This document shows, piece by piece, positions 4,485 through 60,033 of a stretch of 60,033 bases of DNA. The first letter of the stretch is position 1. Each line of letters starts with the position of its first letter. The stretch comes from a virus (taxonomy: Duplodnaviria; Caudoviricetes). The stretch spans positions 1 through 60,033 of the IMG/VR virus record IMGVR_UViG_3300030104_000540; one strand, written 5' to 3'. The translations under genes and the position numbers were made by a program. Below the pieces are notes generated by a model, which worked only from the letters and a program-made list of their open reading frames with translations, made no database searches and was not told where the DNA came from.

Positions 4485-4553
4485 TGTGGTTACCACTTCA
4501 ATTTCCTAATCTGTGTATTTATACAAGCATACGTACCCCATAGGGTGGCATGG
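4485..4553. other. Conserved non-coding block, candidate genome terminus or packaging site (variant A)
   Basis: TGTGGTT, TTTCCTAATCTGT, ATACGTA and GGGTGGCA(TGG) shared in order with 58876-58954; lies between the divergent arms. Confidence 0.45.
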
Positions 4554-4817
4554 CTGTCGCCCTCCCCCTCAATCGTGGGCAGACGTGTGCATAATGTCCA
4601 GCCACACGCAGGAATTGAGCCGACCAAATGCTCATTCTCTCTGAGAATGAAAGTGCAATCAGACCAAAACCGACCCCTAACACTCAAACGGAGTGTTAAA
4701 GGTGGAGTTGCCGAGCCAAATGACCATCACAAAGTGATGAATTGGCAAAATTGCCGTTCAAACTACGTTTGGGAGTACAAAAAACCATACCCCCTCTTAA
4801 CAGCGAAGCTGTTACAA

Positions 4818-4831
4818 GTCCGATGTCGGAC
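4818..4831. promoter_or_regulatory. Palindrome GTCCGATGTCGGAC, copy 1
   Basis: 6-bp arms, 2-bp centre; six copies in the early region. Confidence 0.85.
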
Positions 4832-4894
4832 AGTCTGCATCATCAGAAACAGATCAATCATAGATAGATTCTCTATCAAAAACTGACGGCAAAA

Positions 4895-5016
4895 TGACTC
4901 CGTTTGAACATTTTTTTATGGTTTCATTTGAAATGTTTTAAGCACCCTGTAACGAAGTGAAGGGTGTTAAAACCTTTCAATTAAATGAAACCAAAAAAAT
5001 GTAACAAACGGAGTCA
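4895..5016 (+). promoter_or_regulatory. 122-nt imperfect hairpin occluding the SD of the first early gene
   Basis: TGACTCCGTTTG (4895-4906) pairs with CAAACGGAGTCA (5005-5016); inner stems TGGTTTCATTT/AAATGAAACCA and CACCCT/AGGGTG. Confidence 0.8.
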
Positions 5017-5019
5017 AAC

Positions 5020-5643
5020 ATGAAAAATTCAACAACAACCACTTCCAAATTAAACAACGGTTTAATTCAAAACTTAGCTAAAGCTAAGTCAAATGCTGAA
5101 AAAGGTTCAATTCTCTCTAGAGAGAATACACGTCTACTGTCTCTTGAAAAGAGACAGTTTGAAGCCCAAACTATGTTTGGAGGTTTTTGGTTTTCACTTG
5201 GAAAGCTCATCTCTGATGAGTTGAATGCAAGTGGAAAGTTGAGACTTTCCACAGCTCAGCTTAAAAAGCTGAATATCACTAAAATTGAACGTCAAAGACG
5301 TTCAGATGCTAAACTTTTCTTTGAAAATTATGATGCTTTACAATCTCTTACAAAGAGATTTAATAACGTATCAGCTTTGCTGAAAGAATTTAATAAACAG
5401 AACTCAAAGAGTTCTGAAACATCTACTAAAGTAGATGAAAAGTCATCTTCTAAAGAAGATGTTAAGTCCGATGTCGGACAAAGTGATAACAACGAAGTTG
5501 TTAAAGTAGGTACTTTTCAAGTACCTAATGTAAAGCAAATGGCTGAAGCCATTGTAATGCAAGCCATTGAAAATGGCTTAGAAGTTAAAGAGCTAAAAGC
5601 TCTTAACGCTGAAATTGCTAACCAAATCAAGGCTTTAGCTTAA
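5020..5643 (+). CDS. First early protein (variant A), putative DNA-binding protein
   Basis: GGAG SD; helical N-domain, S/K/E linker, helical C-domain; remote counterpart of 59273-59917. Confidence 0.75.
   Translation: MKNSTTTTSKLNNGLIQNLAKAKSNAEKGSILSRENTRLLSLEKRQFEAQTMFGGFWFSLGKLISDELNASGKLRLSTAQLKKLNITKIERQRRSDAKLFFENYDALQSLTKRFNNVSALLKEFNKQNSKSSETSTKVDEKSSSKEDVKSDVGQSDNNEVVKVGTFQVPNVKQMAEAIVMQAIENGLEVKELKALNAEIANQIKALA
5466..5479. promoter_or_regulatory. Palindrome GTCCGATGTCGGAC, copy 2 (inside first early gene)
   Basis: Exact copy, read as KSDVGQ. Confidence 0.85.
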
Positions 5644-5649
5644 CCATTA

Positions 5650-5710
5650 CTAACATAGATGTAATACATATTGAATGTATATGAAATATGTATTACATCT
5701 TAAATGTTAG
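5650..5710. other. Long intergenic stem-loop
   Basis: AGATGTAATACATATT/AATATGTATTACATCT 16-bp stem plus CTAACAT/ATGTTAG. Confidence 0.75.
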
Positions 5711-5726
5711 TTAGAAAGGAAAAATT

Positions 5727-6017
5727 ATGAAAATTACATACTGTAAACCTGACCCATTACTTGATCCAAAAAATCGCTCTTACTATGTTATACCTAAGTA
5801 TAACCATAGTAAAGTCCACAAAGACTTTGCTGACTACGTCAGCCAGAAAGTAGACGTAGTCTACGTTAATGGCGAAGCCATTGAGTATGGAACAATGGAT
5901 TACTACGTAAAAGATGTAGTTAGCAATTTCCCTGCTCAGTATGAGCAGTTAGAAGTTAATCAGCAAATGAAAGAATTTGCTCAATATGACACAGGATTTA
6001 GACCTGTTATGAAATAA
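5727..6017 (+). CDS. Early hypothetical protein
   Basis: AGAAAGGA SD; ORF. Confidence 0.7.
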   Translation: MKITYCKPDPLLDPKNRSYYVIPKYNHSKVHKDFADYVSQKVDVVYVNGEAIEYGTMDYYVKDVVSNFPAQYEQLEVNQQMKEFAQYDTGFRPVMK

Positions 6018-6023
6018 CAGTAA

Positions 6024-6037
6024 GTCCGATGTCGGTC
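6024..6037. promoter_or_regulatory. Palindrome copy 3 (GTCCGATGTCGGTC)
   Basis: One mismatch to the consensus. Confidence 0.75.
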
Positions 6038-6045
6038 TTAACAGC

Positions 6046-6078
6046 AAGGCTGTAGCAGTAATGTTACAGCCTTTTTTT
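6046..6078 (+). terminator. Rho-independent terminator
   Basis: AAGGCTGTAGCA-GTAA-TGTTACAGCCTT followed by a T tract. Confidence 0.85.
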
Positions 6079-6101
6079 ATGCCTAAAGAAAGGATACCAT
6101 T

Positions 6102-6305
6102 ATGAGAAATAAATATATACTATCAGTGTATGCAATGTTTGCTTATGCAATGGCTAACATTATCACAGGTTTTTATACATTATCATATGCAAATACCGTT
6201 GTATTTGCTCACATGCAACCATATGATGCGATTGTATGCACGATTAGTGCAATCTTTATTGCATGGGGTACTATGATAATAGGAGTTGTAGTGCTAAAGT
6301 ATTAG
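6102..6305 (+). CDS. Small two-TM membrane protein
   Basis: AAGGA SD; two hydrophobic segments. Confidence 0.65.
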   Translation: MRNKYILSVYAMFAYAMANIITGFYTLSYANTVVFAHMQPYDAIVCTISAIFIAWGTMIIGVVVLKY

Positions 6306-6366
6306 TAATATAACAATAAATAATATATATCTATTTATAGATATATTATTTATTTTATATATTACT
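6304..6366. other. AT-rich long inverted repeat
   Basis: AGTAATATA/TATATTACT outer stem and AATAAATAATATAT/ATATATTATTTATT inner stem. Confidence 0.7.
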
Positions 6367-6372
6367 TATTAA

Positions 6373-6386
6373 GTCCGATGTCGGAC
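6373..6386. promoter_or_regulatory. Palindrome copy 4
   Basis: Exact copy just upstream of the SD of 6406. Confidence 0.85.
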
Positions 6387-6405
6387 ATAAACAGAAAGGG
6401 TTATT

Positions 6406-7047
6406 ATGTTTAATACAGTTAAAGAAGCATGGGCTGAAGTGGGTGGCTTATCCAAGCCATCTAAAATGCCATCATTTGGTTATTCATTAAGTGCATTTAA
6501 ATGCAAGGTAGGTAGTAAGCTGAGGAATATTGCTAACTCTACATGTAGTGATTGCTATGCATTGAAGGGAAGGTATGTCTTCCCCAATGTACAAGAAGCA
6601 TTGGATAGGAGAATGGATAGGCTATTGAACAATCCTAATTGGATTGAAGCTATGTCATTTTTAATCAATCACTATTCCACTAAAGGTGGAGTGTTTAGGT
6701 GGCATGATAGTGGAGATTTACAATCTCTTGATCACCTACAAAAGATTGTAAAAGTTGCTGAGCTTACACCTAGTGTAAGGCATTGGCTACCAACAAGAGA
6801 GGTAGCAATGGTGCGAGATTACCAAAAGCAATACGGAGAGTTTCCTAGCAACTTAGTTGTTAGGATAAGTGCTACTATGATTAATGGTTTACCCCATAAG
6901 TTTCATAGGCATACTAGCACAGTATCAACAGCCAAAGATTTTGATTTGGGTTGGACTTGTCCTGCTAGTAAACAAGGTAACAAGTGTGACACGTGTCGTG
7001 CTTGTTGGGATAGTAATGTTGAAAATATTACTTACCCTTTACATTAA
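6406..7047 (+). CDS. GP88-family protein (Cys-rich, radical-SAM-like)
   Basis: SKMP, C-x11-CSDCYA, FRWHDSGD and C-terminal CxxCxxC motifs. Confidence 0.75.
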   Translation: MFNTVKEAWAEVGGLSKPSKMPSFGYSLSAFKCKVGSKLRNIANSTCSDCYALKGRYVFPNVQEALDRRMDRLLNNPNWIEAMSFLINHYSTKGGVFRWHDSGDLQSLDHLQKIVKVAELTPSVRHWLPTREVAMVRDYQKQYGEFPSNLVVRISATMINGLPHKFHRHTSTVSTAKDFDLGWTCPASKQGNKCDTCRACWDSNVENITYPLH

Positions 7048-7081
7048 GAGTGTTATAGTATATAACATAAACATTAACTAA

Positions 7082-7095
7082 GTCCGATGTCGGAC
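7082..7095. promoter_or_regulatory. Palindrome copy 5
   Basis: Exact copy upstream of an AAGGAG SD. Confidence 0.85.
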
Positions 7096-7117
7096 ATAAT
7101 TGAAAGGAGCATATATT

Positions 7118-7390
7118 ATGTTTTTCTTATATTCGTCTAAATTAACTAACGATAAGATGGGAGTAAGACGTAGTCTTATTCTTGAAATTAATGATGTCAA
7201 AGTTATCAATTTTAAAACTATGACATATTGGAGAAAGAGATTGTTCTCTTACTCTAGAACACTCAACAAGCCTGTGGGCTTTACTCAAGGTGATTGCTTT
7301 AACAGTTATCACTTCTTTAACTTCACATTACATGTGGAGAAAAGAAGAAACAGGCAATCTGTGAGAAAGCTGTGGCACTTCGCAGGTTAA
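7118..7390 (+). CDS. Early hypothetical protein
   Basis: AAGGAG SD before ATG 7118. Confidence 0.7.
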   Translation: MFFLYSSKLTNDKMGVRRSLILEINDVKVINFKTMTYWRKRLFSYSRTLNKPVGFTQGDCFNSYHFFNFTLHVEKRRNRQSVRKLWHFAG

Positions 7391-7394
7391 TGTG

Positions 7395-7550
7395 ATGTCT
7401 AAGATGCGTAACCCTATTGCTAGAATGTTGCACATAGCGACACGCAATAGGGTTATGGGTGTAGACAAAAAGTTTAACAAGAAAAAAGAAAGGCAGAAAA
7501 ATGCAAAGTCAAAACTTAGGAAAGATGCGAGTAAACAAGAAGATGTTTAA
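7395..7550 (+). CDS. 51-aa basic protein (RNPIAR...KKFNKKKER)
   Basis: Manual translation; resembles small basic NPxA phage peptides. Confidence 0.5.
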   Translation: MSKMRNPIARMLHIATRNRVMGVDKKFNKKKERQKNAKSKLRKDASKQEDV

Positions 7551-7641
7551 CAAAGACAAAAGAAAAGAGTACAAGCATAACAGACGTTTACAACGTCAGC
7601 TTAAACAAACAACACAACTAAAAGCATGGAGACAAGCATGA
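7501..7641 (+). CDS. 46-aa basic protein
   Basis: Manual translation; GAAAGG SD; ATGA overlap with the next gene. Confidence 0.5.
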   Translation: MQSQNLGKMRVNKKMFNKDKRKEYKHNRRLQRQLKQTTQLKAWRQA

Positions 7642-7871
7642 GTGATACACCGACAGTAGCACAGACTAACAGAGAAGCATTGTATGAGATAATGCAATTG
7701 CTAGGCGATGAGTATGAGAGTGGTTACATAGGTAACTATGAGAGATGGGGTGATGAAACCACATCTTACATATGGCATGGCAACAAGAAATATGGTGGCT
7801 ATCGTGGAGAAGACAGCCACAGATTATTAATCACAGCAATACTATTGCTAAAGAAAAAGTTAGGAGAGTAA
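7638..7871 (+). CDS. Hypothetical protein
   Basis: GGAG SD before ATG 7638; ORF track. Confidence 0.65.
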   Translation: MSDTPTVAQTNREALYEIMQLLGDEYESGYIGNYERWGDETTSYIWHGNKKYGGYRGEDSHRLLITAILLLKKKLGE

Positions 7872-7873
7872 TT

Positions 7874-8455
7874 ATGAAAATTAAAAAGCTAATCAAACTA
7901 TTAGAATGCATTGAGGGTGACTACAATGGCAAACTACCACAGGACATGTATCATCTAGGCACGTACACAAAAGAGGGTGGCACGTGGGAAGCTATTGCTG
8001 AGATGGATTTTGTACATGCTATGAGGGCATTTAAAAGGGTAATCAACTATGATGTAAACCTAGAGGTATCTGTATCACAGACTAATCAGATAATGAAACT
8101 AGAGCAAGAGGTGTCACACTTGAGAGAGAGAGTAAAAAACTTGAATAAACAAGCTCATGCCTTGCAAGAATCAAACATTCAGATGAAAGAACGTAACCAA
8201 GACTTACACAAAAGGCTTGAGGAGAAGTCTTACAGAGAAGTGACAGCACCACGTTATGTATTCAGCGAGATACCTAACGACTGTGATGGTCAAAGGTTTG
8301 TTGATGATGCAAAAAACTATTTCAACAGAAGCAGATACAATATGAGAGTGCGAGGTCAACACATCAAGGAAGAATACAAAGGCACAGGTGCTACGGCATA
8401 TGGGCAAAGCATAGAACAATCAACACACTTACGTGTATACATAGAGGAGAAGTAA
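7874..8455 (+). CDS. Coiled-coil hypothetical protein
   Basis: AGGAG SD before ATG 7874; ORF track. Confidence 0.7.
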   Translation: MKIKKLIKLLECIEGDYNGKLPQDMYHLGTYTKEGGTWEAIAEMDFVHAMRAFKRVINYDVNLEVSVSQTNQIMKLEQEVSHLRERVKNLNKQAHALQESNIQMKERNQDLHKRLEEKSYREVTAPRYVFSEIPNDCDGQRFVDDAKNYFNRSRYNMRVRGQHIKEEYKGTGATAYGQSIEQSTHLRVYIEEK

Positions 8456-8457
8456 AA

Positions 8458-8661
8458 ATGAAGAATGAATATTTAAAAGAAACATTTAGTAATGATAAAG
8501 TAATCGTATCAAAAGTAGATATAGATGCAATGCATAGATACATAAGCAGTAAGGATTCAGAAACTATATCTGCTATTGTCTATGATGCTTTAACGTCTAT
8601 GGATATTAAACATGATGGTTTTGGTTGGGATATAAATGTAACTGTAGAACAGGAGAAGTAG
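8458..8661 (+). CDS. Hypothetical protein
   Basis: SD; packed operon. Confidence 0.65.
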   Translation: MKNEYLKETFSNDKVIVSKVDIDAMHRYISSKDSETISAIVYDALTSMDIKHDGFGWDINVTVEQEK

Positions 8662-8856
8662 ATGAATAAAATTTTCTTAACATACGAGCAATCTCAATGG
8701 CTATATGTCGTTTGGGTAGATGGTGTAGCTAATTACTACCCCACCTATGCAAAAGCAAAAGAATACTATGACGTTTGTACGGATTATGATAACGTAGTGT
8801 TGGATTGTTGGGATACATTTCATAAAAGGCTAAGAACAATAGAGGAGAAAGAATAA
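8662..8856 (+). CDS. Hypothetical protein
   Basis: SD; packed operon. Confidence 0.6.
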   Translation: MNKIFLTYEQSQWLYVVWVDGVANYYPTYAKAKEYYDVCTDYDNVVLDCWDTFHKRLRTIEEKE

Positions 8857-9077
8857 TGGAAGAAGAAATTATTGACATGCTAAACATACAGCATAGAATA
8901 GAAGAGTTAATGCAAGAGGGCAAGGCATCAAAACTCAGAGGGTGGTCAGCGAGAGACATTTCAGATCGCATCACCTCTGAGTGGCGAGACGAGAAAGCAG
9001 GAGAGTATGCTTTCAAGTACATAGCCTACAATTATTCAACAGCTAAGTCCGACATCGGACATAAGAAAGGAGACTAA
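8856..9077 (+). CDS. Hypothetical protein
   Basis: TAATG overlap; SD. Confidence 0.65.
   Translation: MEEEIIDMLNIQHRIEELMQEGKASKLRGWSARDISDRITSEWRDEKAGEYAFKYIAYNYSTAKSDIGHKKGD
9047..9060. promoter_or_regulatory. Palindrome copy 6 with reversed centre (GTCCGACATCGGAC)
   Basis: Reverse complement of the core within the same TAA...ATAA flanks; upstream of the SD of 9079. Confidence 0.85.
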
Positions 9078-9078
9078 C

Positions 9079-9444
9079 ATGAAAGCATATTACATAGACC
9101 CAATACTACAGTTTGTAGCAGAGGTAGACTTTATACCTGAATCAAACCTGCACGGATTTAGAAAGATATATGAGTGGATTGATGCAGGAACATTTGATGT
9201 AGTCAATCTCAATAGTTACGGAGATGGTATGTACGTTGATGATGAGGGATTACTCAAGAGCAGTAACCATTTCTTTAAAGTTCCTGTGTGGAATGGCGAA
9301 GAGTATGTCCAGCAGATGTATGCAGGTAAGGCACTCATACTAGGTGTAGATAGTGATGGAGACAGCGATGATGTAAAAGGTTTATCTTTTAAATTGTTGC
9401 AAGATAGAATAGAATTTTTAGGAGAGAAGGAGATACGACAATGA
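9079..9444 (+). CDS. DUF3846-like phage protein
   Basis: YVDDEGLLK and G-x-ALILG motifs. Confidence 0.65.
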   Translation: MKAYYIDPILQFVAEVDFIPESNLHGFRKIYEWIDAGTFDVVNLNSYGDGMYVDDEGLLKSSNHFFKVPVWNGEEYVQQMYAGKALILGVDSDGDSDDVKGLSFKLLQDRIEFLGEKEIRQ

Positions 9445-10679
9445 ATGTATTAAGTTTATTTGATGGTATGTCTTGTGGACAGATAGCACTTAACAGAGCA
9501 GGTGTGAAGTATGACAAGTATTATGCATCTGAAGTTGACAAGTATGCTATTAAAGTTGCTAATGTTAATTTTCCAAACACGATACAGTTAGGAGATGTAT
9601 CTTATATTAACTCTCATGGTTCAGATGAACTACATGAAGATGAGATAGACCTACTTATGGGTGGTTCACCTTGTCAGGGATTTAGTGTAGCAGGTAAACA
9701 ACTAAACTTTGATGACCCACGTAGCAAACTATTCTTTGAGTTTGTCAGACTAAGAGATAAGCTAAAGCCTAAGTACTTTCTTATGGAGAATGTACCTATG
9801 AAACAAGATTCGCAGGACATTATTACAAAGTATTTAGGTGTTGAGCCTATCACTATAAACTCTAGTTTATTCTCTGCACAGAATAGAAAGAGATTGTATT
9901 GGACTAACATTCCCTTTGATATACCTACAGAAGACAAAGGTATAGTGTTGCAGGATATACTAGAAGATGGTATTGCTAATGATGCTATGACTAACAAAGA
10001 TAGCAAGTCACATTGCATTACTGCACGATACAATGGTGCAGTATGGTGGAACAGTATCCAACGTAAGCAACGTACTATGGTACAAGTGGGCGAAGCTGAT
10101 AACATCAAAGGCTTTGATAGTATCAAACGTATCTACTCACCCAATGGGAAAGCTCCCACACTTACCACTATGCAGGGTGGGCATAGAGAACCAAAGGTAG
10201 CTACAGATATTGTAACATTTAATCCTAACCAAGAAGCTAAGATACAGAAGATGAATGTTACAACGGACAAAGCCAACTGTCTTACAGAAGCCATAGGCAG
10301 AGGTGGTAGTAGCTCTGAGTATCTGACTAGTGTTAAGAAGAAAACACTAGCACTTAAATCCATAGGTAGAATTGTTAATCGTAGGCTAGATGAGGATGGT
10401 GTCCGTAAAGACAACCAACTTGAGCTACCTCTATCCAAACAGTTAGAGATAAGTGATAGTGATAAGTCCAACTGTCTCACAACTGTAAGCAAAGACAATG
10501 TAGTAGTAGAGGGTATGCAATGGAGAAAGCTAACACCAATAGAGTGTGAGCGATTGCAAACTGTACCTGACAACTACACCAATCACGTGTCCAATAGCCA
10601 ACGATACAAGATGTTAGGTAATGGTTGGACAGTTGATGTGATTGCACACATAATGAAAGGAATAAAGAATGTGGACTAA
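9441..10679 (+). CDS. DNA (cytosine-5) methyltransferase
   Basis: SLFDG, GGSPCQGFS, ENV, QNRKRLYW, RKLTPIECERLQ, YKMLGNGW. Confidence 0.95.
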   Translation: MNVLSLFDGMSCGQIALNRAGVKYDKYYASEVDKYAIKVANVNFPNTIQLGDVSYINSHGSDELHEDEIDLLMGGSPCQGFSVAGKQLNFDDPRSKLFFEFVRLRDKLKPKYFLMENVPMKQDSQDIITKYLGVEPITINSSLFSAQNRKRLYWTNIPFDIPTEDKGIVLQDILEDGIANDAMTNKDSKSHCITARYNGAVWWNSIQRKQRTMVQVGEADNIKGFDSIKRIYSPNGKAPTLTTMQGGHREPKVATDIVTFNPNQEAKIQKMNVTTDKANCLTEAIGRGGSSSEYLTSVKKKTLALKSIGRIVNRRLDEDGVRKDNQLELPLSKQLEISDSDKSNCLTTVSKDNVVVEGMQWRKLTPIECERLQTVPDNYTNHVSNSQRYKMLGNGWTVDVIAHIMKGIKNVD

Positions 10680-55795: not shown

Positions 55796-56447
55796 AGGTT
55801 ACGCTAGGGTCTAGGTAGCTTTCGTGGCTTTCTGCCGAGTGTGTCCACTGAGATGGTGTAAAGTCTGGAGCACCTTCCCCAGTAGCCCACAACGCAGGGC
55901 TTGTTGCACGGACTCTATTATTAGGTAAAGCAACAAAGTTTCCTGTCCACTTCCCTGCATCTAGCAGATATAATACATGCGACTGTTTATGTTGGGCAGG
56001 ATCATCTGCTATGTCGCTATCTGTGTAGTCCACTGTAAATAAGTATTTACCTTTGTAAAACTCTCCACCGATCTTACAAAGCCAAGGGCTTGAACTTACT
56101 CTATCCATCACGACTACACTGTGATTTCTTGATTCACAATCCCAAGGTTGTGCTAAATGATCTTCCATTGGTTCTGACCATTCATCTAGTGGAATGTCAG
56201 CTACGAGTGCTTGTATTGGCATCCTAGCCCACATTGCTCCACCATGTATATTTGTTTCAGGTCCATCTTCAAAGTCAGCTTCGCAACCTGTGAATACTAG
56301 TTGAAAGCTAAGTGACCTATCAGGTATTGTATTAACTGCAAATACCATCGCATGTAAAAACTCTCCGTGATACTGCTGATGGTTTGACGTAAACTCTTTC
56401 CGTACCCAACAATGAAAATGGGGTACGTTACTTATGAGATACGGCAT
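55749..56447 (-). CDS. Conserved hypothetical protein (GGAMWARMPI, QPWDC, HKQSH, LPNNR)
   Basis: ORF; its first codons recur at 1-28. Confidence 0.85.
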   Translation of the reverse strand: MPYLISNVPHFHCWVRKEFTSNHQQYHGEFLHAMVFAVNTIPDRSLSFQLVFTGCEADFEDGPETNIHGGAMWARMPIQALVADIPLDEWSEPMEDHLAQPWDCESRNHSVVVMDRVSSSPWLCKIGGEFYKGKYLFTVDYTDSDIADDPAQHKQSHVLYLLDAGKWTGNFVALPNNRVRATSPALWATGEGAPDFTPSQWTHSAESHESYLDPSVTFDNLYNDKKQKKKRP

Positions 56448-56494
56448 TATCTACGTCTAGCAGCTCCACCTCTAGCATAGCCTTTTTTCTTTTT
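56420..56494. repeat. 75-bp exact repeat, copy 2
   Basis: Identical to 1-75. Confidence 0.97.
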
Positions 56495-56578
56495 ACCCAT
56501 GCCACCACCCATCATTTTAGGCTTCATAGCACCACCTTTAGCCATACCTTTTTTCTTTTTACCTTTATGCATTGGCAT
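56447..56578 (-). CDS. 43-aa basic peptide (MPMHKGKKKKGMAKGG...YARGGAARRR)
   Basis: Manual translation; AGGAG SD; homolog of 28-156. Confidence 0.85.
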   Translation of the reverse strand: MPMHKGKKKKGMAKGGAMKPKMMGGGMGKKKKGYARGGAARRR

Positions 56579-56592
56579 ATTACATTCTCCTA

Positions 56593-56850
56593 TTATGCTC
56601 TTGATCGAACCTTACCTGCAGTTTTTGTTCTTGCAAAAGATCGGTTTCTTCTTACAGATGAGATACCTAGATTATTCCATCTATTATCTCTTGGATTACC
56701 GTTTCTATGTGTAACATCTTTACCTGTAAGATTTACTCCACGTTTTTTCATAGCGTTACGTGCAGCATTCCGACTATCTCTACGTTTTACTTGTTCAGGT
56801 CTACTGTGATAATTATCATATTCTTTACGGTAATTTCTTTTATAAGCCAT
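56593..56850 (-). CDS. Small HNH-like basic protein
   Basis: RNYRKEY...KDVTHRNGNPRDN...NL...NR. Confidence 0.7.
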   Translation of the reverse strand: MAYKRNYRKEYDNYHSRPEQVKRRDSRNAARNAMKKRGVNLTGKDVTHRNGNPRDNRWNNLGISSVRRNRSFARTKTAGKVRSRA

Positions 56851-57812
56851 TAATTTTTCTTTAGATAGGCTATTAATTCTTTTTTACTTGGTCTTCTACC
56901 TAACTGTTTTTCTAATTTATTTTCAGCATCTATTTCTGCTAGTCTAACTTTTGCTGGACCTTTTCCACCTACTATAAGATTAAACATCCTACCACTACTA
57001 CCCCCATTAGTTTTCTTTTTACCATTAAATAATTTTGGTTTAGGTTTTGGTAGTACTATAGTTACTGAAGATTTAGATTTAGGTTTTGTTTTAGGTTGAG
57101 AGACTTTAGATTTTTTTGTTTTAATTAACTCTTTATCAGACTTTCTTTCTTTTTGACCACCTTTAGTGCTTCTAACTACTATTCCTTCAGTTATTGTGCT
57201 TTTTTCTATTTTAGAAGGTTTTAACGATGCTAATATTGCTCCAATAGCTATACCTATTCCACCTGCTCCTGCAACAGCAGTTAAAGGATGTTTTCTTATC
57301 ATACCTCTTATAGTATCTGTTATCTTTGACATACTTACATTAGGTGCTTTAGCTTTAACTTTTTTAGCTAGGTTGTTTATTTTTTGTTGAACACTTAATG
57401 TTTTAGTTTTAGTTACAGTTTTGGGTTTACCACCTGTAGCACTACCTACTTTAACATTTGGCTTAACACCTATTTTAGTTGTAGTTTTGGATTTACTACC
57501 TGTAGCACTACCTATTTTAGATTTACTACCTGTAGCACTACCTACTTTAACTTTTGTTTTAGTTGTAGTTTTATTTATTTTCATTCCGGGATTATTAGGA
57601 CCTCCGGGTGTTTTACCTAGTCCTGCAACAGATGATTTTTTTACGTTAAGAAGAGAAGTTAGTTTAACTTTGGATAACATATTTTTAGGCACAGCATTTT
57701 GAATTTTAAAATTTTTAATACCTAACCTTCTCATTTCTCCGGTAATCTCAGCTTTTGTTGCTCTTATATATAATGTGCTTCGACCCGGAATAGATACTGG
57801 ATATACTGCCAT
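56850..57812 (-). CDS. Lys/Thr/Ser-rich basic protein with GSATG repeats and one hydrophobic segment
   Basis: TAATG coupling; composition. Confidence 0.7.
   Translation of the reverse strand: MAVYPVSIPGRSTLYIRATKAEITGEMRRLGIKNFKIQNAVPKNMLSKVKLTSLLNVKKSSVAGLGKTPGGPNNPGMKINKTTTKTKVKVGSATGSKSKIGSATGSKSKTTTKIGVKPNVKVGSATGGKPKTVTKTKTLSVQQKINNLAKKVKAKAPNVSMSKITDTIRGMIRKHPLTAVAGAGGIGIAIGAILASLKPSKIEKSTITEGIVVRSTKGGQKERKSDKELIKTKKSKVSQPKTKPKSKSSVTIVLPKPKPKLFNGKKKTNGGSSGRMFNLIVGGKGPAKVRLAEIDAENKLEKQLGRRPSKKELIAYLKKN
57490..57544. repeat. 30-nt-period tandem repeat (K[VI]GSATGSKS)
   Basis: GATTTACTACCTGTAGCACTACCTA at 57490 and 57520; third degenerate copy near 57426. Confidence 0.85.
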
Positions 57813-58459
57813 TATTTACTCCTTGTTATGTTTTTATACGCTTTCATTCCTTTAGGACCACTCTCACGTAATGCTTTTAGTCCGGGATTGTCTGTAACAT
57901 TACCACCTGCTACATACATATGTTTCTTTCCACTTGACATACCACCATATGCCATTTTTTCTACATTCTTTTTAAGAATAGCACCACCTTTATTATTTCC
58001 AAATAGCTCTCCTTGGAACTTATTTTTAACAAATCTAGCACCGATTAAGGCAGCTTCACTTAAAGTTGGTATTTTTCTATCTGATGATCCATATTCACCT
58101 GATCTTAAAAGTTCATCTTTTATATCCTTTAAAGACCTTGCTGCTTCCCTTTTGTATTTATTAGGCTTACTAGGTGGTGCATCGACAGTTTTCTTAGGTG
58201 GATCACCTCTATCTTTTCTATTTAAACTTAGTGCTTGTTGTTTAATAACATCAAGTATTCTTTGTCTTCCACCACCTAGTTTTGTATCACCTACAATTTT
58301 ATCAAGAACTTGATTTAATTTCTTTTTTAAAACATTCTTTCTGCTTTTATTTGCATCATTACTAGGTTCTTCCTCTAATCTATAAAGTTCTGCTTGGGCA
58401 CTAACACCCATTTTCTCTAATTTTTTATCACTTGGTGTAGCTACTTGTTTCTGTGTCAT
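57812..58459 (-). CDS. Basic protein with MAYGG/HMYVAGG motifs
   Basis: C-terminus resembles 3081-3362. Confidence 0.75.
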   Translation of the reverse strand: MTQKQVATPSDKKLEKMGVSAQAELYRLEEEPSNDANKSRKNVLKKKLNQVLDKIVGDTKLGGGRQRILDVIKQQALSLNRKDRGDPPKKTVDAPPSKPNKYKREAARSLKDIKDELLRSGEYGSSDRKIPTLSEAALIGARFVKNKFQGELFGNNKGGAILKKNVEKMAYGGMSSGKKHMYVAGGNVTDNPGLKALRESGPKGMKAYKNITRSK

Positions 58460-58668
58460 TATTCATCCCTTTCTTTCCAACCTTCAGCCCTCATTGCTTC
58501 CTCTACATGCTTTAAAGTAAATTTTCTACCGTAATGGGCTTCAACAGCCTGTCGCACGTAGAAGACATCACTATGAGGAATATGCAATCGGTCTAAGGAA
58601 TTAGTACGTATAGCATTATAAAATGCATCTAACACATTATCTGTATATAGTTTTACTGATTTTTTCAT
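58459..58668 (-). CDS. First gene of late arm (variant B)
   Basis: Homolog of 4028-4234. Confidence 0.8.
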   Translation of the reverse strand: MKKSVKLYTDNVLDAFYNAIRTNSLDRLHIPHSDVFYVRQAVEAHYGRKFTLKHVEEAMRAEGWKERDE

Positions 58669-58802
58669 AAATGTCAAGTAATTATAGTACGTAGGGTTAA
58701 TATTTATTAAAAACCACTTAATATGTACATTTATAGTGTTTTTTATAACTTAATATATTAAACACTTATAGTGTTACACTGTTTGTGTTCTAGTTATACA
58801 TA

Positions 58803-58831
58803 ATTATAGCCGATTTTTAGTCATCTGTCAA
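58803..58831 (-). promoter_or_regulatory. Sigma70 promoter, late arm (variant B)
   Basis: TTGACA-N17-TATAAT. Confidence 0.8.
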
Positions 58832-58875
58832 GAAAAAAATTAAAATACTTTACTTTTAGTGTTATCACTTGCCTT

Positions 58876-58954
58876 TGTGGTTTACAATGCATTTTCCTAA
58901 TCTGTTGCAGTGTACATATACGTAACGTGTACGTGGGGGGTGGCAGTGGCATGG
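58876..58954. other. Conserved non-coding block, candidate terminus (variant B)
   Basis: Same ordered motifs as 4485-4553. Confidence 0.45.
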
Positions 58955-59097
58955 GGTGTGTATGAGCCGATAGTTAGGTAGGTAGCTGTAAAAATAGCAT
59001 TTTTTAGACATATTTAGTGCTAAATAGACGTATTATTAGGATTATAGGTTAACTGTTAGTGTATCAATTGCTTTTTATACACTGTTTTTAATGAATG

Positions 59098-59114
59098 GGT
59101 TAGAAATTCTAACC
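59098..59114. promoter_or_regulatory. Palindrome GGTTAGAAATTCTAACC, copy 1
   Basis: 8-bp arms, 1-bp centre; upstream of the first early gene. Confidence 0.85.
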
Positions 59115-59193
59115 GAATTATGCAATGTAGGTGTATAACATATCGTCTGTAAGCTATATATACACCCATATTTAAAAAAATATTATTATTAAG

Positions 59194-59223
59194 TTGACTT
59201 TGTTTTATTTTTCTGTGCATAAT
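59194..59223 (+). promoter_or_regulatory. Probable early sigma70 promoter (variant B)
   Basis: TTGACT-N18-CATAAT. Confidence 0.45.
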
Positions 59224-59272
59224 ACAGTTATTGATAGGCAATCATGCCATCATGTATAACAAAGGAATTGTT

Positions 59273-59917
59273 ATGTTAAATATTATTAAAGGTTTTGTAG
59301 CACCTAAAGCTACTCAAGAGCGTGAATCATTTACTATTGTTTCTAATTACTTTAATTCATTGGATACAATTAGAGGGAATGAGGAACATTTTATTTATGA
59401 AGGCAATCTTATTAATTCTATTAAGAATGTTAAAGGTAAGAAAAAAGAAAAGAGAATGAATGATTTAAACCTTTATAAATATACTAAATATGAAAGGCAT
59501 TACTTAGGTAAGATTGCCAACAATAAAAAAGCATTTTTGGCTTATATTGCTAGTTATCCAACGGATACAAGGCTACCTAGTTTTGAGACTATTTATAATA
59601 ATAGTGTTAAAGAATATGACGAAAATGGTAAGAAGAAACCTTCTAACCCAATTATGACAGGTGAGAAGAATACACCTAAAAATCAGGTTAGAAATTCTAA
59701 CCCAAAAGTTGACAAGTCAGAAGATAAGACAACAGTAGATTATAAAGATAATCATGAGACTTTAGAGGAAGCTGTTGAGACTTGTGTTAGTATGCTTTTA
59801 GATTTTGGTGCAACTGAAGCTGAGATTGCTAACCTAGTTATTAAGTCATTACAGAAAAGAAATAAAAAGTTAATGACTACATCAAATAAAAAGACAATAG
59901 CTTTTAAAGTAGCTTAA
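59273..59917 (+). CDS. First early protein (variant B), putative DNA-binding protein
   Basis: AAAGGA SD before ATG 59273; same position, size and architecture as 5020-5643. Confidence 0.75.
   Translation: MLNIIKGFVAPKATQERESFTIVSNYFNSLDTIRGNEEHFIYEGNLINSIKNVKGKKKEKRMNDLNLYKYTKYERHYLGKIANNKKAFLAYIASYPTDTRLPSFETIYNNSVKEYDENGKKKPSNPIMTGEKNTPKNQVRNSNPKVDKSEDKTTVDYKDNHETLEEAVETCVSMLLDFGATEAEIANLVIKSLQKRNKKLMTTSNKKTIAFKVA
59686..59702. promoter_or_regulatory. Palindrome GGTTAGAAATTCTAACC, copy 2 (inside first early gene)
   Basis: Exact copy, read as QVRNSNP; half site at 59641-59648. Confidence 0.85.
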
Positions 59918-59927
59918 CTAATATATC

Positions 59928-59962
59928 AAAAGTGAGAGCAGAAATGTTCTCACTTTTTTTTT
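59928..59962 (+). terminator. Rho-independent terminator
   Basis: AAAAGTGAGAGCA-GAAA-TGTTCTCACTTTT plus T tract. Confidence 0.88.
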
Positions 59963-60033
59963 GTCTTTTTTTTTATTTTTTTTTTGTGCAACTACTATCA
60001 TGGGGGGGGTGAGATATGCTTTGCAACTACTAT

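Follow-up and report, generated by a model that had tools for sequence, protein, structure and literature searches.

A repeated palindrome that switches together with the N-terminal domain of the first early protein in HMO-2011-type marine phages

The virus record IMGVR_UViG_3300030104_000540 (the window: the whole record, 60,033 bases) ends in a small early gene that is accompanied by a palindrome of its own, and among related phages the sequence of this palindrome changes in step with the N-terminal domain of the protein that the gene encodes. The palindrome, GGTTAGAAATTCTAACC, consists of 8-nt arms round one central base and is present as two exact matches, at 59098..59114 and 59686..59702. 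It occurs nowhere else in the window with up to 3 mismatches allowed, and 0 of 100 shuffled sequences reach this count. The first rightward gene (59273..59917, + strand, 214 amino acids) is an open reading frame with a ribosome-binding site, and its likeliest start is the ATG at 59273, with AAGGA ahead of it. The upstream copy ends 159 nt ahead of this start codon and roughly 80 nt ahead of the -35 hexamer of a purely consensus-based candidate for a sigma-70-like promoter (TTGACT, 18 nt, CATAAT; 59194..59223, + strand; 10 of 12 positions matched). The second copy lies within the gene, where it covers codons 138-144 and encodes the peptide VRNSN in a predicted disordered linker. On one side of this linker lies the coding region of a helical N-terminal domain, the candidate specificity and DNA-binding domain (residues ~32-122; 59366..59638, + strand), and on the other that of a two-helix C-terminal domain with a tail, the predicted dimerisation module (residues 164-214; 59762..59914, + strand). 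A terminator-like hairpin with a T run follows the gene (59928..59957, + strand). The earlier note on this DNA had placed the palindrome at 59098 and 59686, some 160 nt ahead of the gene and at codon 138, and these positions hold exactly. It had also listed a half site, TTCTAACC, which is indeed present at 59641..59648; among relatives it is found in L004 and L008 and absent from L006, L005 and L009. Three of the four same-palindrome loci checked keep it, and the two GCTTAG...CTAAGC-variant loci checked have no counterpart. Since it is so poorly kept, the half site was left out of the feature, and it is probably incidental.

The window belongs to an HMO-2011-type podophage, since its polymerase has a DnaJ-type zinc motif and the product of the gene at 5020-5643 shares 34% identity with a protein of Puniceispirillum phage HMO-2011. 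Its first 99 bases (1-99) recur at 56420-56518 with 96% identity over 99 nt, and the copies diverge beyond that point. Assembly went once round the genome and then continued into a module already covered, in the version of a second strain, and the contig is a chimeric assembly of co-occurring variants. The window therefore holds two versions of one module: variant A, from 1 to ~5643 and continuing into the early genes, and variant B, at 56420-60033, which stops 116 bases past its first rightward gene. The counterpart gene of variant A (5020..5643, + strand, 207 amino acids) has the same three-part architecture and an in-gene palindrome at codon 149, where the earlier note had put it. The palindrome of variant A (core GTCCGATGTCGGAC) is a different one. 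It is present in six copies, AAGTCCGAYRTCGGACA, which begin at 4816, 5464 (in the gene linker), 6022, 6371, 7080 and 9045 and are confined to 4816-9061. Neither palindrome is seen in the other variant, as the earlier note had stated, with the copies of A found at 4816-9061 alone and those of B at 59098 and 59686 alone.

The small number of B copies appears to be a product of assembly. Every contig with a B-type gene ends within ~150 nt of its stop codon, and a scan for the palindrome found two contigs, L098 and L100, that begin at that point, each with three exact GGTTAGAAATTCTAACC copies and one with a single mismatch, flanked by AATTCA/CAATT and placed just before early genes. Because these two loci carry the continuation, we regard the B array as truncated by the contig end and its two copies as the visible start of an A-like array. 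The early regions of L098 and L100 are 73-76% identical to those of L011 and L078, which are of a GTCAATT type, and at three matching junctions the other palindrome type is found.

Comparison of the DNA of 11 loci related to variant B shows how closely the sites and the gene change together. Where the linker peptide is VRNSN, the upstream and the linker site are both GGTTAGAAATTCTAACC; where it is LRNSK, both are GCTTAGAAATTCTAAGC; and where it is TVNSID, both are GTCAATT(C/G)AATTGAC, with three to five further copies downstream. Either GGTTAGAAATTCTAACC, GCTTAGAAATTCTAAGC or GTCAATTGAATTGAC occupies one aligned upstream position between conserved flanks, and the linker copy always matches the upstream copy of its own locus. 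The G-to-C change that distinguishes GGTTAGAAATTCTAACC from GCTTAGAAATTCTAAGC is mirrored in both arms of both copies. When variant B is aligned with L011, a relative of the GTCAATT type, the 640 nt upstream are 82% identical and the C-domain 87%, and only the part that encodes the N-domain and linker (~59314-59754) fails to align. Sites also switch in place between variant A and its relative L017, whose flanking genes are 80-87% identical and which nonetheless carry GTCCGAYRTCGGAC versus GTCCAAYRTTGGAC at three matching sites, with unalignable segments and differing gene content between the shared sites. A non-coding block of 120 nt (58851..58970) is near-identical in loci of three different palindrome types, which are therefore close relatives with a swapped module. 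More generally, the BLAST clusters of the N-domain coincide with palindrome families in at least 10 groups. The earlier proposal that palindrome and N-domain change together across relatives is thus borne out by three site types that follow the N-domain and by the swap between B and L011.

To place these modules in a wider context, relatives were collected through a handle independent of the first gene, namely its conserved leftward neighbour (the gene of the MKKSVKL protein). This gave 80 loci, of which 41 had at least 3 kb on the early side; 67 late sides served as comparison. The set is partly redundant, as L052 and L053 are near-duplicates and some loci share contigs with L001 and L003. 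A strict scan (perfect 6-nt arms, at most one mismatch) found at least four copies of a palindrome on 16 of the 41 early sides, and none of the 67 late sides or 41 shuffles exceeded two. With a looser scan, for 4-nt half sites that contain two or more G or C and are spaced by 2-9, at least four copies were found on 24 of 41 early versus 3 of 67 late sides, and at least five on 18 of 41 versus 0 of 67. A chance origin of the palindromes is ruled out by the shuffles and by this comparison of early with late sides. Four loci that initially scored negative keep the outer GTCC-N6-GGAC alone, linker copy included.

At least 12 different cores were found among the relatives (for example GTCCAAYRTTGGAC, GTCCGAYRTCGGAC, GTCCCAAGTTGGGAC, TGTCCAAASTTTGGACA, GTCATAGNCTATGAC, TTATAAGSCTTATAA, TCCCGATGTCGGGA and GTCACGCGGTGAC), in agreement with the multiple specificities that had been suspected. 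Genomes carry 2-10 copies, limited to the early block, and the first gene heads every array. The first gene contains a copy in 16 of the 24 array-bearing loci, at ~60-75% of its length. The expectation that most relatives would combine an upstream with a linker copy is generous in view of this fraction, and HMO-2011 itself has no repeated palindrome in a scan with perfect 6-nt arms. Among 18 non-redundant loci, 47 of 77 downstream copies end at most 40 nt before a ribosome-binding site and start codon (median 23 nt), compared with 56 of 360 random positions. A few copies are instead found 20-40 nt upstream of strong promoter-like sites, as in L081 and also behind the GTCAATT-type first gene, and the flanks of the sites can be symmetric too (AAAC...CTTT, for instance). 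Overall, the pattern is that of a private dyad array, in which one short dyad is repeated, enriched in the intergenic gaps of one transcription block and lacking outside it. The earlier note had described a diversifying protein and self-site module at the genome end. A diversifying pair of protein and site is what we find; the sites are more than self-sites, forming an array before many early genes, and the position at a genome end is unsupported.

The proteins themselves match none of the families searched. Homologues of the B protein number 35, nearly all of them from short contigs of metagenomes, and it has no match among 50,697 phage records. No Pfam family (E-value up to 1) or PHROG family was found for the A or B protein and no Pfam family for 12 A-type relatives. 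Two profiles of first-protein families (A1 and A3) found nothing below an E-value of 0.5 among the sequences of solved structures, and a profile search of 1.84 billion representatives returned nine matches, all within one small family. With Foldseek, neither model gave a row at an E-value of 0.001 or less against the PDB or BFVD. The domain DUF3102 (PF11300), to which a language-model neighbour cluster with 29% carriers (scores 0.92 and 0.93) and a BFVD row at an E-value of 1.2 had led, was rejected for lack of a Pfam match. The resemblance between A and B, which the earlier note had called a weak alignment, is just that: BLASTP gives a non-significant E-value of 0.18, and profile-profile comparison with hhalign gives a weak collinear alignment over 137 columns (probability 24%, E-value 8e-4). 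Both proteins neighbour the same unnamed viral clusters in a language-model search.

Structural models agree on a common architecture. The B model has five helices at residues 37-114 (block predicted local distance difference test score, pLDDT, 77-94), a linker at 128-161 with pLDDT below 50 and further helices at 164-196; the A model has helices at 4-132, a linker at 131-168 with pLDDT below 50 and helices at 171-206. The in-gene palindrome falls in the disordered linker in both. The kept geometry and similar helical C-domains that had been proposed for the two variants therefore reappear in the models, as a helical N-domain, a disordered linker holding the site and a two-helix C-domain. In an alignment of homologues, a common N-terminus is followed by an N-domain of either of two unrelated types, a linker that varies except for an invariant Asn-Ser, and one of two C-domain types, each of which combines freely with either N-domain. 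A homodimer of the B protein (residues 28-214) was predicted with a score of 0.69, against 0.22 for the best of three controls; of known homodimers 20 of 30 score this high, and of monomers 1 of 23, counts that are approximate given the custom alignment used. Separate runs share at least 64% of contacts, the partner has a pLDDT of at least 69, and the interface residues all lie within 164-214, so that the C-domain is the predicted site of dimerisation. The C-terminal tail, (K)LMTTSNKKTIAFKVA (59870-59917), is nearly invariant across N-domain types, and K-x-A likewise closes the A-type proteins. The tail may serve to dock a partner, and some of its residues belong to the predicted dimer interface.

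Taken together, these observations suggest a dimeric, type-specific DNA-binding regulator with an operator-like array, whose likeliest reader is the product of the first rightward gene. We give this reading a probability of about one half. What we infer here is the identity of the reader, its action on DNA and the direction of regulation, and the case for the first protein, though circumstantial, draws on lines of evidence that converge: its N-domain clusters follow the sites, the swap is limited to the N-domain and linker as the C-domain moves independently, every array has the gene at its head, usually with a copy inside it, and a dimer fits a dyad. In such a system, the palindromes would be two-fold symmetric docking sites on DNA for a strain-type-specific protein encoded by the phage. 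Each helical N-terminal domain would read one half site, two chains would be paired by their C-terminal two-helix domains, and the flexible linker would give the dimer the reach to span the dyad. Every phage type would have a copy upstream of its first gene, usually one in the linker-coding DNA, and more before the ribosome-binding sites of small early genes, through which the protein may regulate both itself and the whole early block, most plausibly by shutdown or as a roadblock to transcription. Changes of the N-domain and of all sites in step would then create many mutually exclusive specificities.

Several observations weigh against this proposal. Firstly, no DNA-binding family or fold was established for the first protein with Pfam, PHROGs or Foldseek, and other early proteins also diverge between site types (an 81-amino-acid protein, for example, is 33-36% identical). 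Secondly, no contig links a B-type first gene to a downstream array; the B protein and the conserved non-coding block are also absent from the 53-kb contig behind L098. In one 23-kb viral contig (L001/L012/L101), the first gene and five sites are of the GTCAATT type, and two sites at downstream junctions are of the B type. The contig may be a real recombinant or an assembly chimera, the latter being possible because the window itself is a chimeric assembly. Thirdly, 5 of the 24 array-bearing loci have no in-gene copy and carry one 2-372 nt after the stop codon instead (the other three are ambiguous), and in HMO-2011 no palindrome exceeds two copies round the homologue of gene A, in a scan with perfect 6-nt arms alone. 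Finally, most downstream copies lie 10-40 nt before start codons inside operons, not at promoters, which suits an RNA or translational role at least equally; the sites can be folded as small RNA hairpins of -7.3 to -9.8 kcal/mol; and the central dinucleotide of even-length dyads shows a mild orientation bias on the sense strand, with TG in 27 and CA in 12 cases across 18 related loci.

These last points lead directly to the most serious alternative, in which the elements are small hairpins in early mRNA, placed before ribosome-binding sites to set translation, processing or stability, with the first protein as an RNA binder or a host nuclease as their reader. The enrichment of downstream copies just before ribosome-binding sites speaks for it, as do z-scores of -2.3 to -3.9 for the predicted hairpins, the wealth of mini-hairpins in the variant A region, and a contig from an RNA library, of a relative about 90% identical, that covers 59013-59561 with the upstream palindrome unchanged, for which DNA carry-over is possible. 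We nevertheless consider it unlikely. Arms of all types are complementary to within 0-2 nt of the centre, where a hairpin could not use the pairing, and the centre is present in either orientation among copies. Across 109 copies, arm mismatches away from the centre comprise 13 of G-U type, 13 of A-C type and 24 others, with no bias towards wobble pairs on the sense strand. Several phages keep the outer 4-nt half sites alone, one helical turn apart, and all copies in a genome share one sequence, which a signal of structure only would not need. Rfam 15 gave no match at gathering threshold in the whole window. Recognition of duplex DNA by a two-fold symmetric protein is favoured over a hairpin because of the pairing to the centre, the two orientations, the lack of wobble bias and the spacing of the half sites.

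A further alternative accepts a protein reader and assigns the role to another phage product, a small early protein or an ejected virion protein, with the first gene as the most heavily regulated target. Four small early proteins are 33-59% identical between B-type and GTCAATT-type regions, one early protein of 58 amino acids has a faint helix-turn-helix match (E-value 0.073), and the first protein has no recognised DNA-binding fold. We nonetheless find this doubtful: the B versus L011 swap round the first gene stops at the N-domain and linker, the N-domain clusters track the site families, no other protein family is common to all array-bearing loci, and the first protein is the one predicted to dimerise in a manner that fits a dyad. 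The MKKSVKL neighbour protein, for which a faint winged-helix match was found (E-value 0.018), was dropped as the determinant of specificity because its gene begins almost identically in B and L001, whose sites differ.

It is also improbable that the repeats serve mainly as recombination landmarks for the exchange of early-gene cassettes, in the manner of the promoter-early stem-loops of T4-type phages, with protein binding as a secondary matter. The differing gene content between matching sites of variant A and L017, the contig with two site types, and the fact that assemblies of independent samples break at the borders of the first-gene module (a unitig of 1104 nt, 58880-59983) would fit such a role. 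Sites of 14-17 bp are short for homologous exchange, however, type-specific sequences would block rather than promote exchange between types, no recombinase is found nearby among 10 open reading frames scanned, and neither the linker copy nor its covariation with the N-domain would be explained. Least probable of all, and very improbable, is that the first protein is a replication initiator with its origin in the gene, as for lambda O: the order of N-terminal binding domain, site-encoding linker and C-terminal domain is the same and the genes for helicase and polymerase lie downstream of this gene, but A and B each have a single in-gene copy and not a repeat cluster, most copies are spread over 3-4 kb before unrelated small genes, and some array-bearing loci lack an in-gene copy altogether.

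Two simpler roles for the sites were set aside. They are unlikely to be promoter or activator sites of the adjacent gene because most copies end 10-40 nt before a start codon, and unlikely to be targets of a DNA methylase, although a C5 methylase gene (9441-10679) follows the last copy of A, because they are 14-17 bp long and type-specific.

Side features of the region concern its hairpins, borders and promoters. Gene A contains 43 mini-hairpins, defined as perfect 5-bp stems closed by loops of 3-6 nt (shuffles: mean 3.7, maximum 12) and gene B 12 (mean 4.9, maximum 12), equal to the shuffle maximum. The claim that B lacks the dense tiling of A accordingly stands in so far as B has far fewer, and needs qualifying in that a weak excess over the mean remains. 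The leader of A (in the region 4545-5643) has 12 mini-hairpins against a shuffle mean of 1.9, and the region upstream of the B gene 11 against 2.2.

Two assembly break points border the first-gene module, with B-type contigs stopping at most 150 nt after the gene and L098 and L100 beginning there. In an independent sample the module forms the unitig noted above, with zero differences from the window. The right break (59960-60033) has a T run, a G8 run and the direct repeat GCAACTACTAT, and the left break a G-rich conserved block. These points may mark the physical ends of the genome or the edges of a terminal repeat, or just be strain branch points; independent-sample sequences were mapped onto the window as contigs only, a comparison that says nothing on molecule ends or transcription. 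The metatranscriptome-library contig mentioned earlier is 590 nt long and ~90% identical, and spans the unchanged upstream palindrome and two thirds of the gene; 92 other letters replace the 74 of the window between 59187 and 59262. It may represent RNA or carried-over DNA. Leftward promoters with a 12/12 sigma-70 consensus (TTGACA, 16-17 nt, TATAAT) lie at 58831-58803 (- strand) and 4389-4362 (- strand) and point toward the MKKSVKL gene and genes of lysine-rich proteins in variants A and B alike, whereas the rightward first gene has the 10/12 site in B and no listed site immediately upstream in A.

Several known systems resemble parts of this arrangement. KorB, a global regulator on the IncP-1 plasmid RK2, has 12 OB operators, some near promoters and others far from them, and its all-helical DNA-binding domain is joined by a flexible linker to a distinct C-terminal domain for dimerisation. 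The scattering of one short palindrome over a replicon is shared with the phages described here, whose first proteins have a similar predicted domain layout, and the KorB DNA-binding domain on its operator (1r71_A) ranks second of 48,161 chains for the A model, with a Z-score of 5.7, a root-mean-square deviation (rmsd) of 3.1 and 86 of 114 residues aligned; for the B model the values are Z 2.5, rmsd 5.3 and 77 residues. Because both Z-scores fall in the range common for helical proteins, we treat the KorB fold as a lead and not as a membership. KorB differs in belonging to a plasmid and not a phage, in the lack of sequence similarity to the first proteins, and in having a ParB-type N-terminal domain, for which no Pfam match was found in A, B or the 12 A-type relatives; in the phages, moreover, the site sequence varies from strain to strain. 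In lambda, four clustered repeats, which form an origin together with an AT-rich segment, lie in the DNA that encodes the linker of the O protein itself. The phages here likewise have a site in the linker-coding DNA of the presumed binder, with the difference that there is one in-gene copy and the rest stand before other genes. The promoter-early stem-loops of T4-type phages are likewise short repeated dyads, found at the borders of small early genes and associated with cassette exchange. They include a promoter and are shared across phages, and we know of no protein that co-varies with them; the sites described here are type-specific.

Closer parallels come from mycobacteriophages. Cluster A phages are described as having an immunity repressor with many stoperators in short intergenic gaps throughout early operons and co-evolving immunity specificities (PMC6550527, PMC9283540), the stoperators being asymmetric and read by a monomer (PMC9283540). 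Many sites in early-operon gaps that co-vary with a protein are common to both; in the HMO-2011-type phages the dyads are symmetric to within 0-2 nt of the centre, the protein is a predicted dimer, and there is no sequence relationship. According to the sections consulted of the report on Cluster O phages, these carry a 17-bp dyad, TGTTCGGNNNCCGAACA, in more than 30 copies spread over the genome, with a single sequence in each cluster. Most copies occupy short gaps between the genes of one operon block, their orientation matters little and recombination was noted among them; dimeric regulators are suggested by the authors, who in those sections name no reader (PMC4351075). This is the closest described pattern. 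In the phages here, by comparison, the 2-10 copies keep to the early block, close relatives carry many different types, and the gene of the candidate reader itself contains a site. The candidate reader, the many types among close relatives and the switching in place are what is new here.

To our knowledge, almost nothing is known on gene control in HMO-2011-type phages. They form a dominant and widely distributed marine viral group, as stated in a study whose main text makes no mention of palindromes, promoters or early genes (PMC9038755); the part consulted of a second study gives temporal classes and no promoters (PMC12753301). The suggestion that the system is undescribed agrees with this, as no description was found in the HMO-2011-type literature searched. 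If the proposed function is true, the arrays would offer a handle on early-gene control and a marker for strain types in viromes. The natural swap experiments, with three site types in one conserved context and a mirrored single-base change, make cognate recognition directly testable.

It is conceivable, as a tentative and rather unlikely extension, that a large share of HMO-2011-type phages encodes a family of dimeric, sequence-specific DNA-binding proteins whose recognition domain and operator array have co-diversified into a dozen or more exclusive types, amounting to heteroimmunity or exclusion in apparently lytic phages. No lysogeny genes were found among 10 early and middle open reading frames of the window and no integrase among 10 scanned; HMO-2011 (L097, 5377-6255) has an annotated integrase in its early region. 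Under such exclusion, the protein of a resident phage would silence the early genes of a later arrival of the same type, competition between co-infecting relatives would drive swapping, and sites on either side of the segment encoding the recognition domain would keep protein and site inherited together. If true, the system could provide a possible basis of exclusion between co-infecting marine phages.

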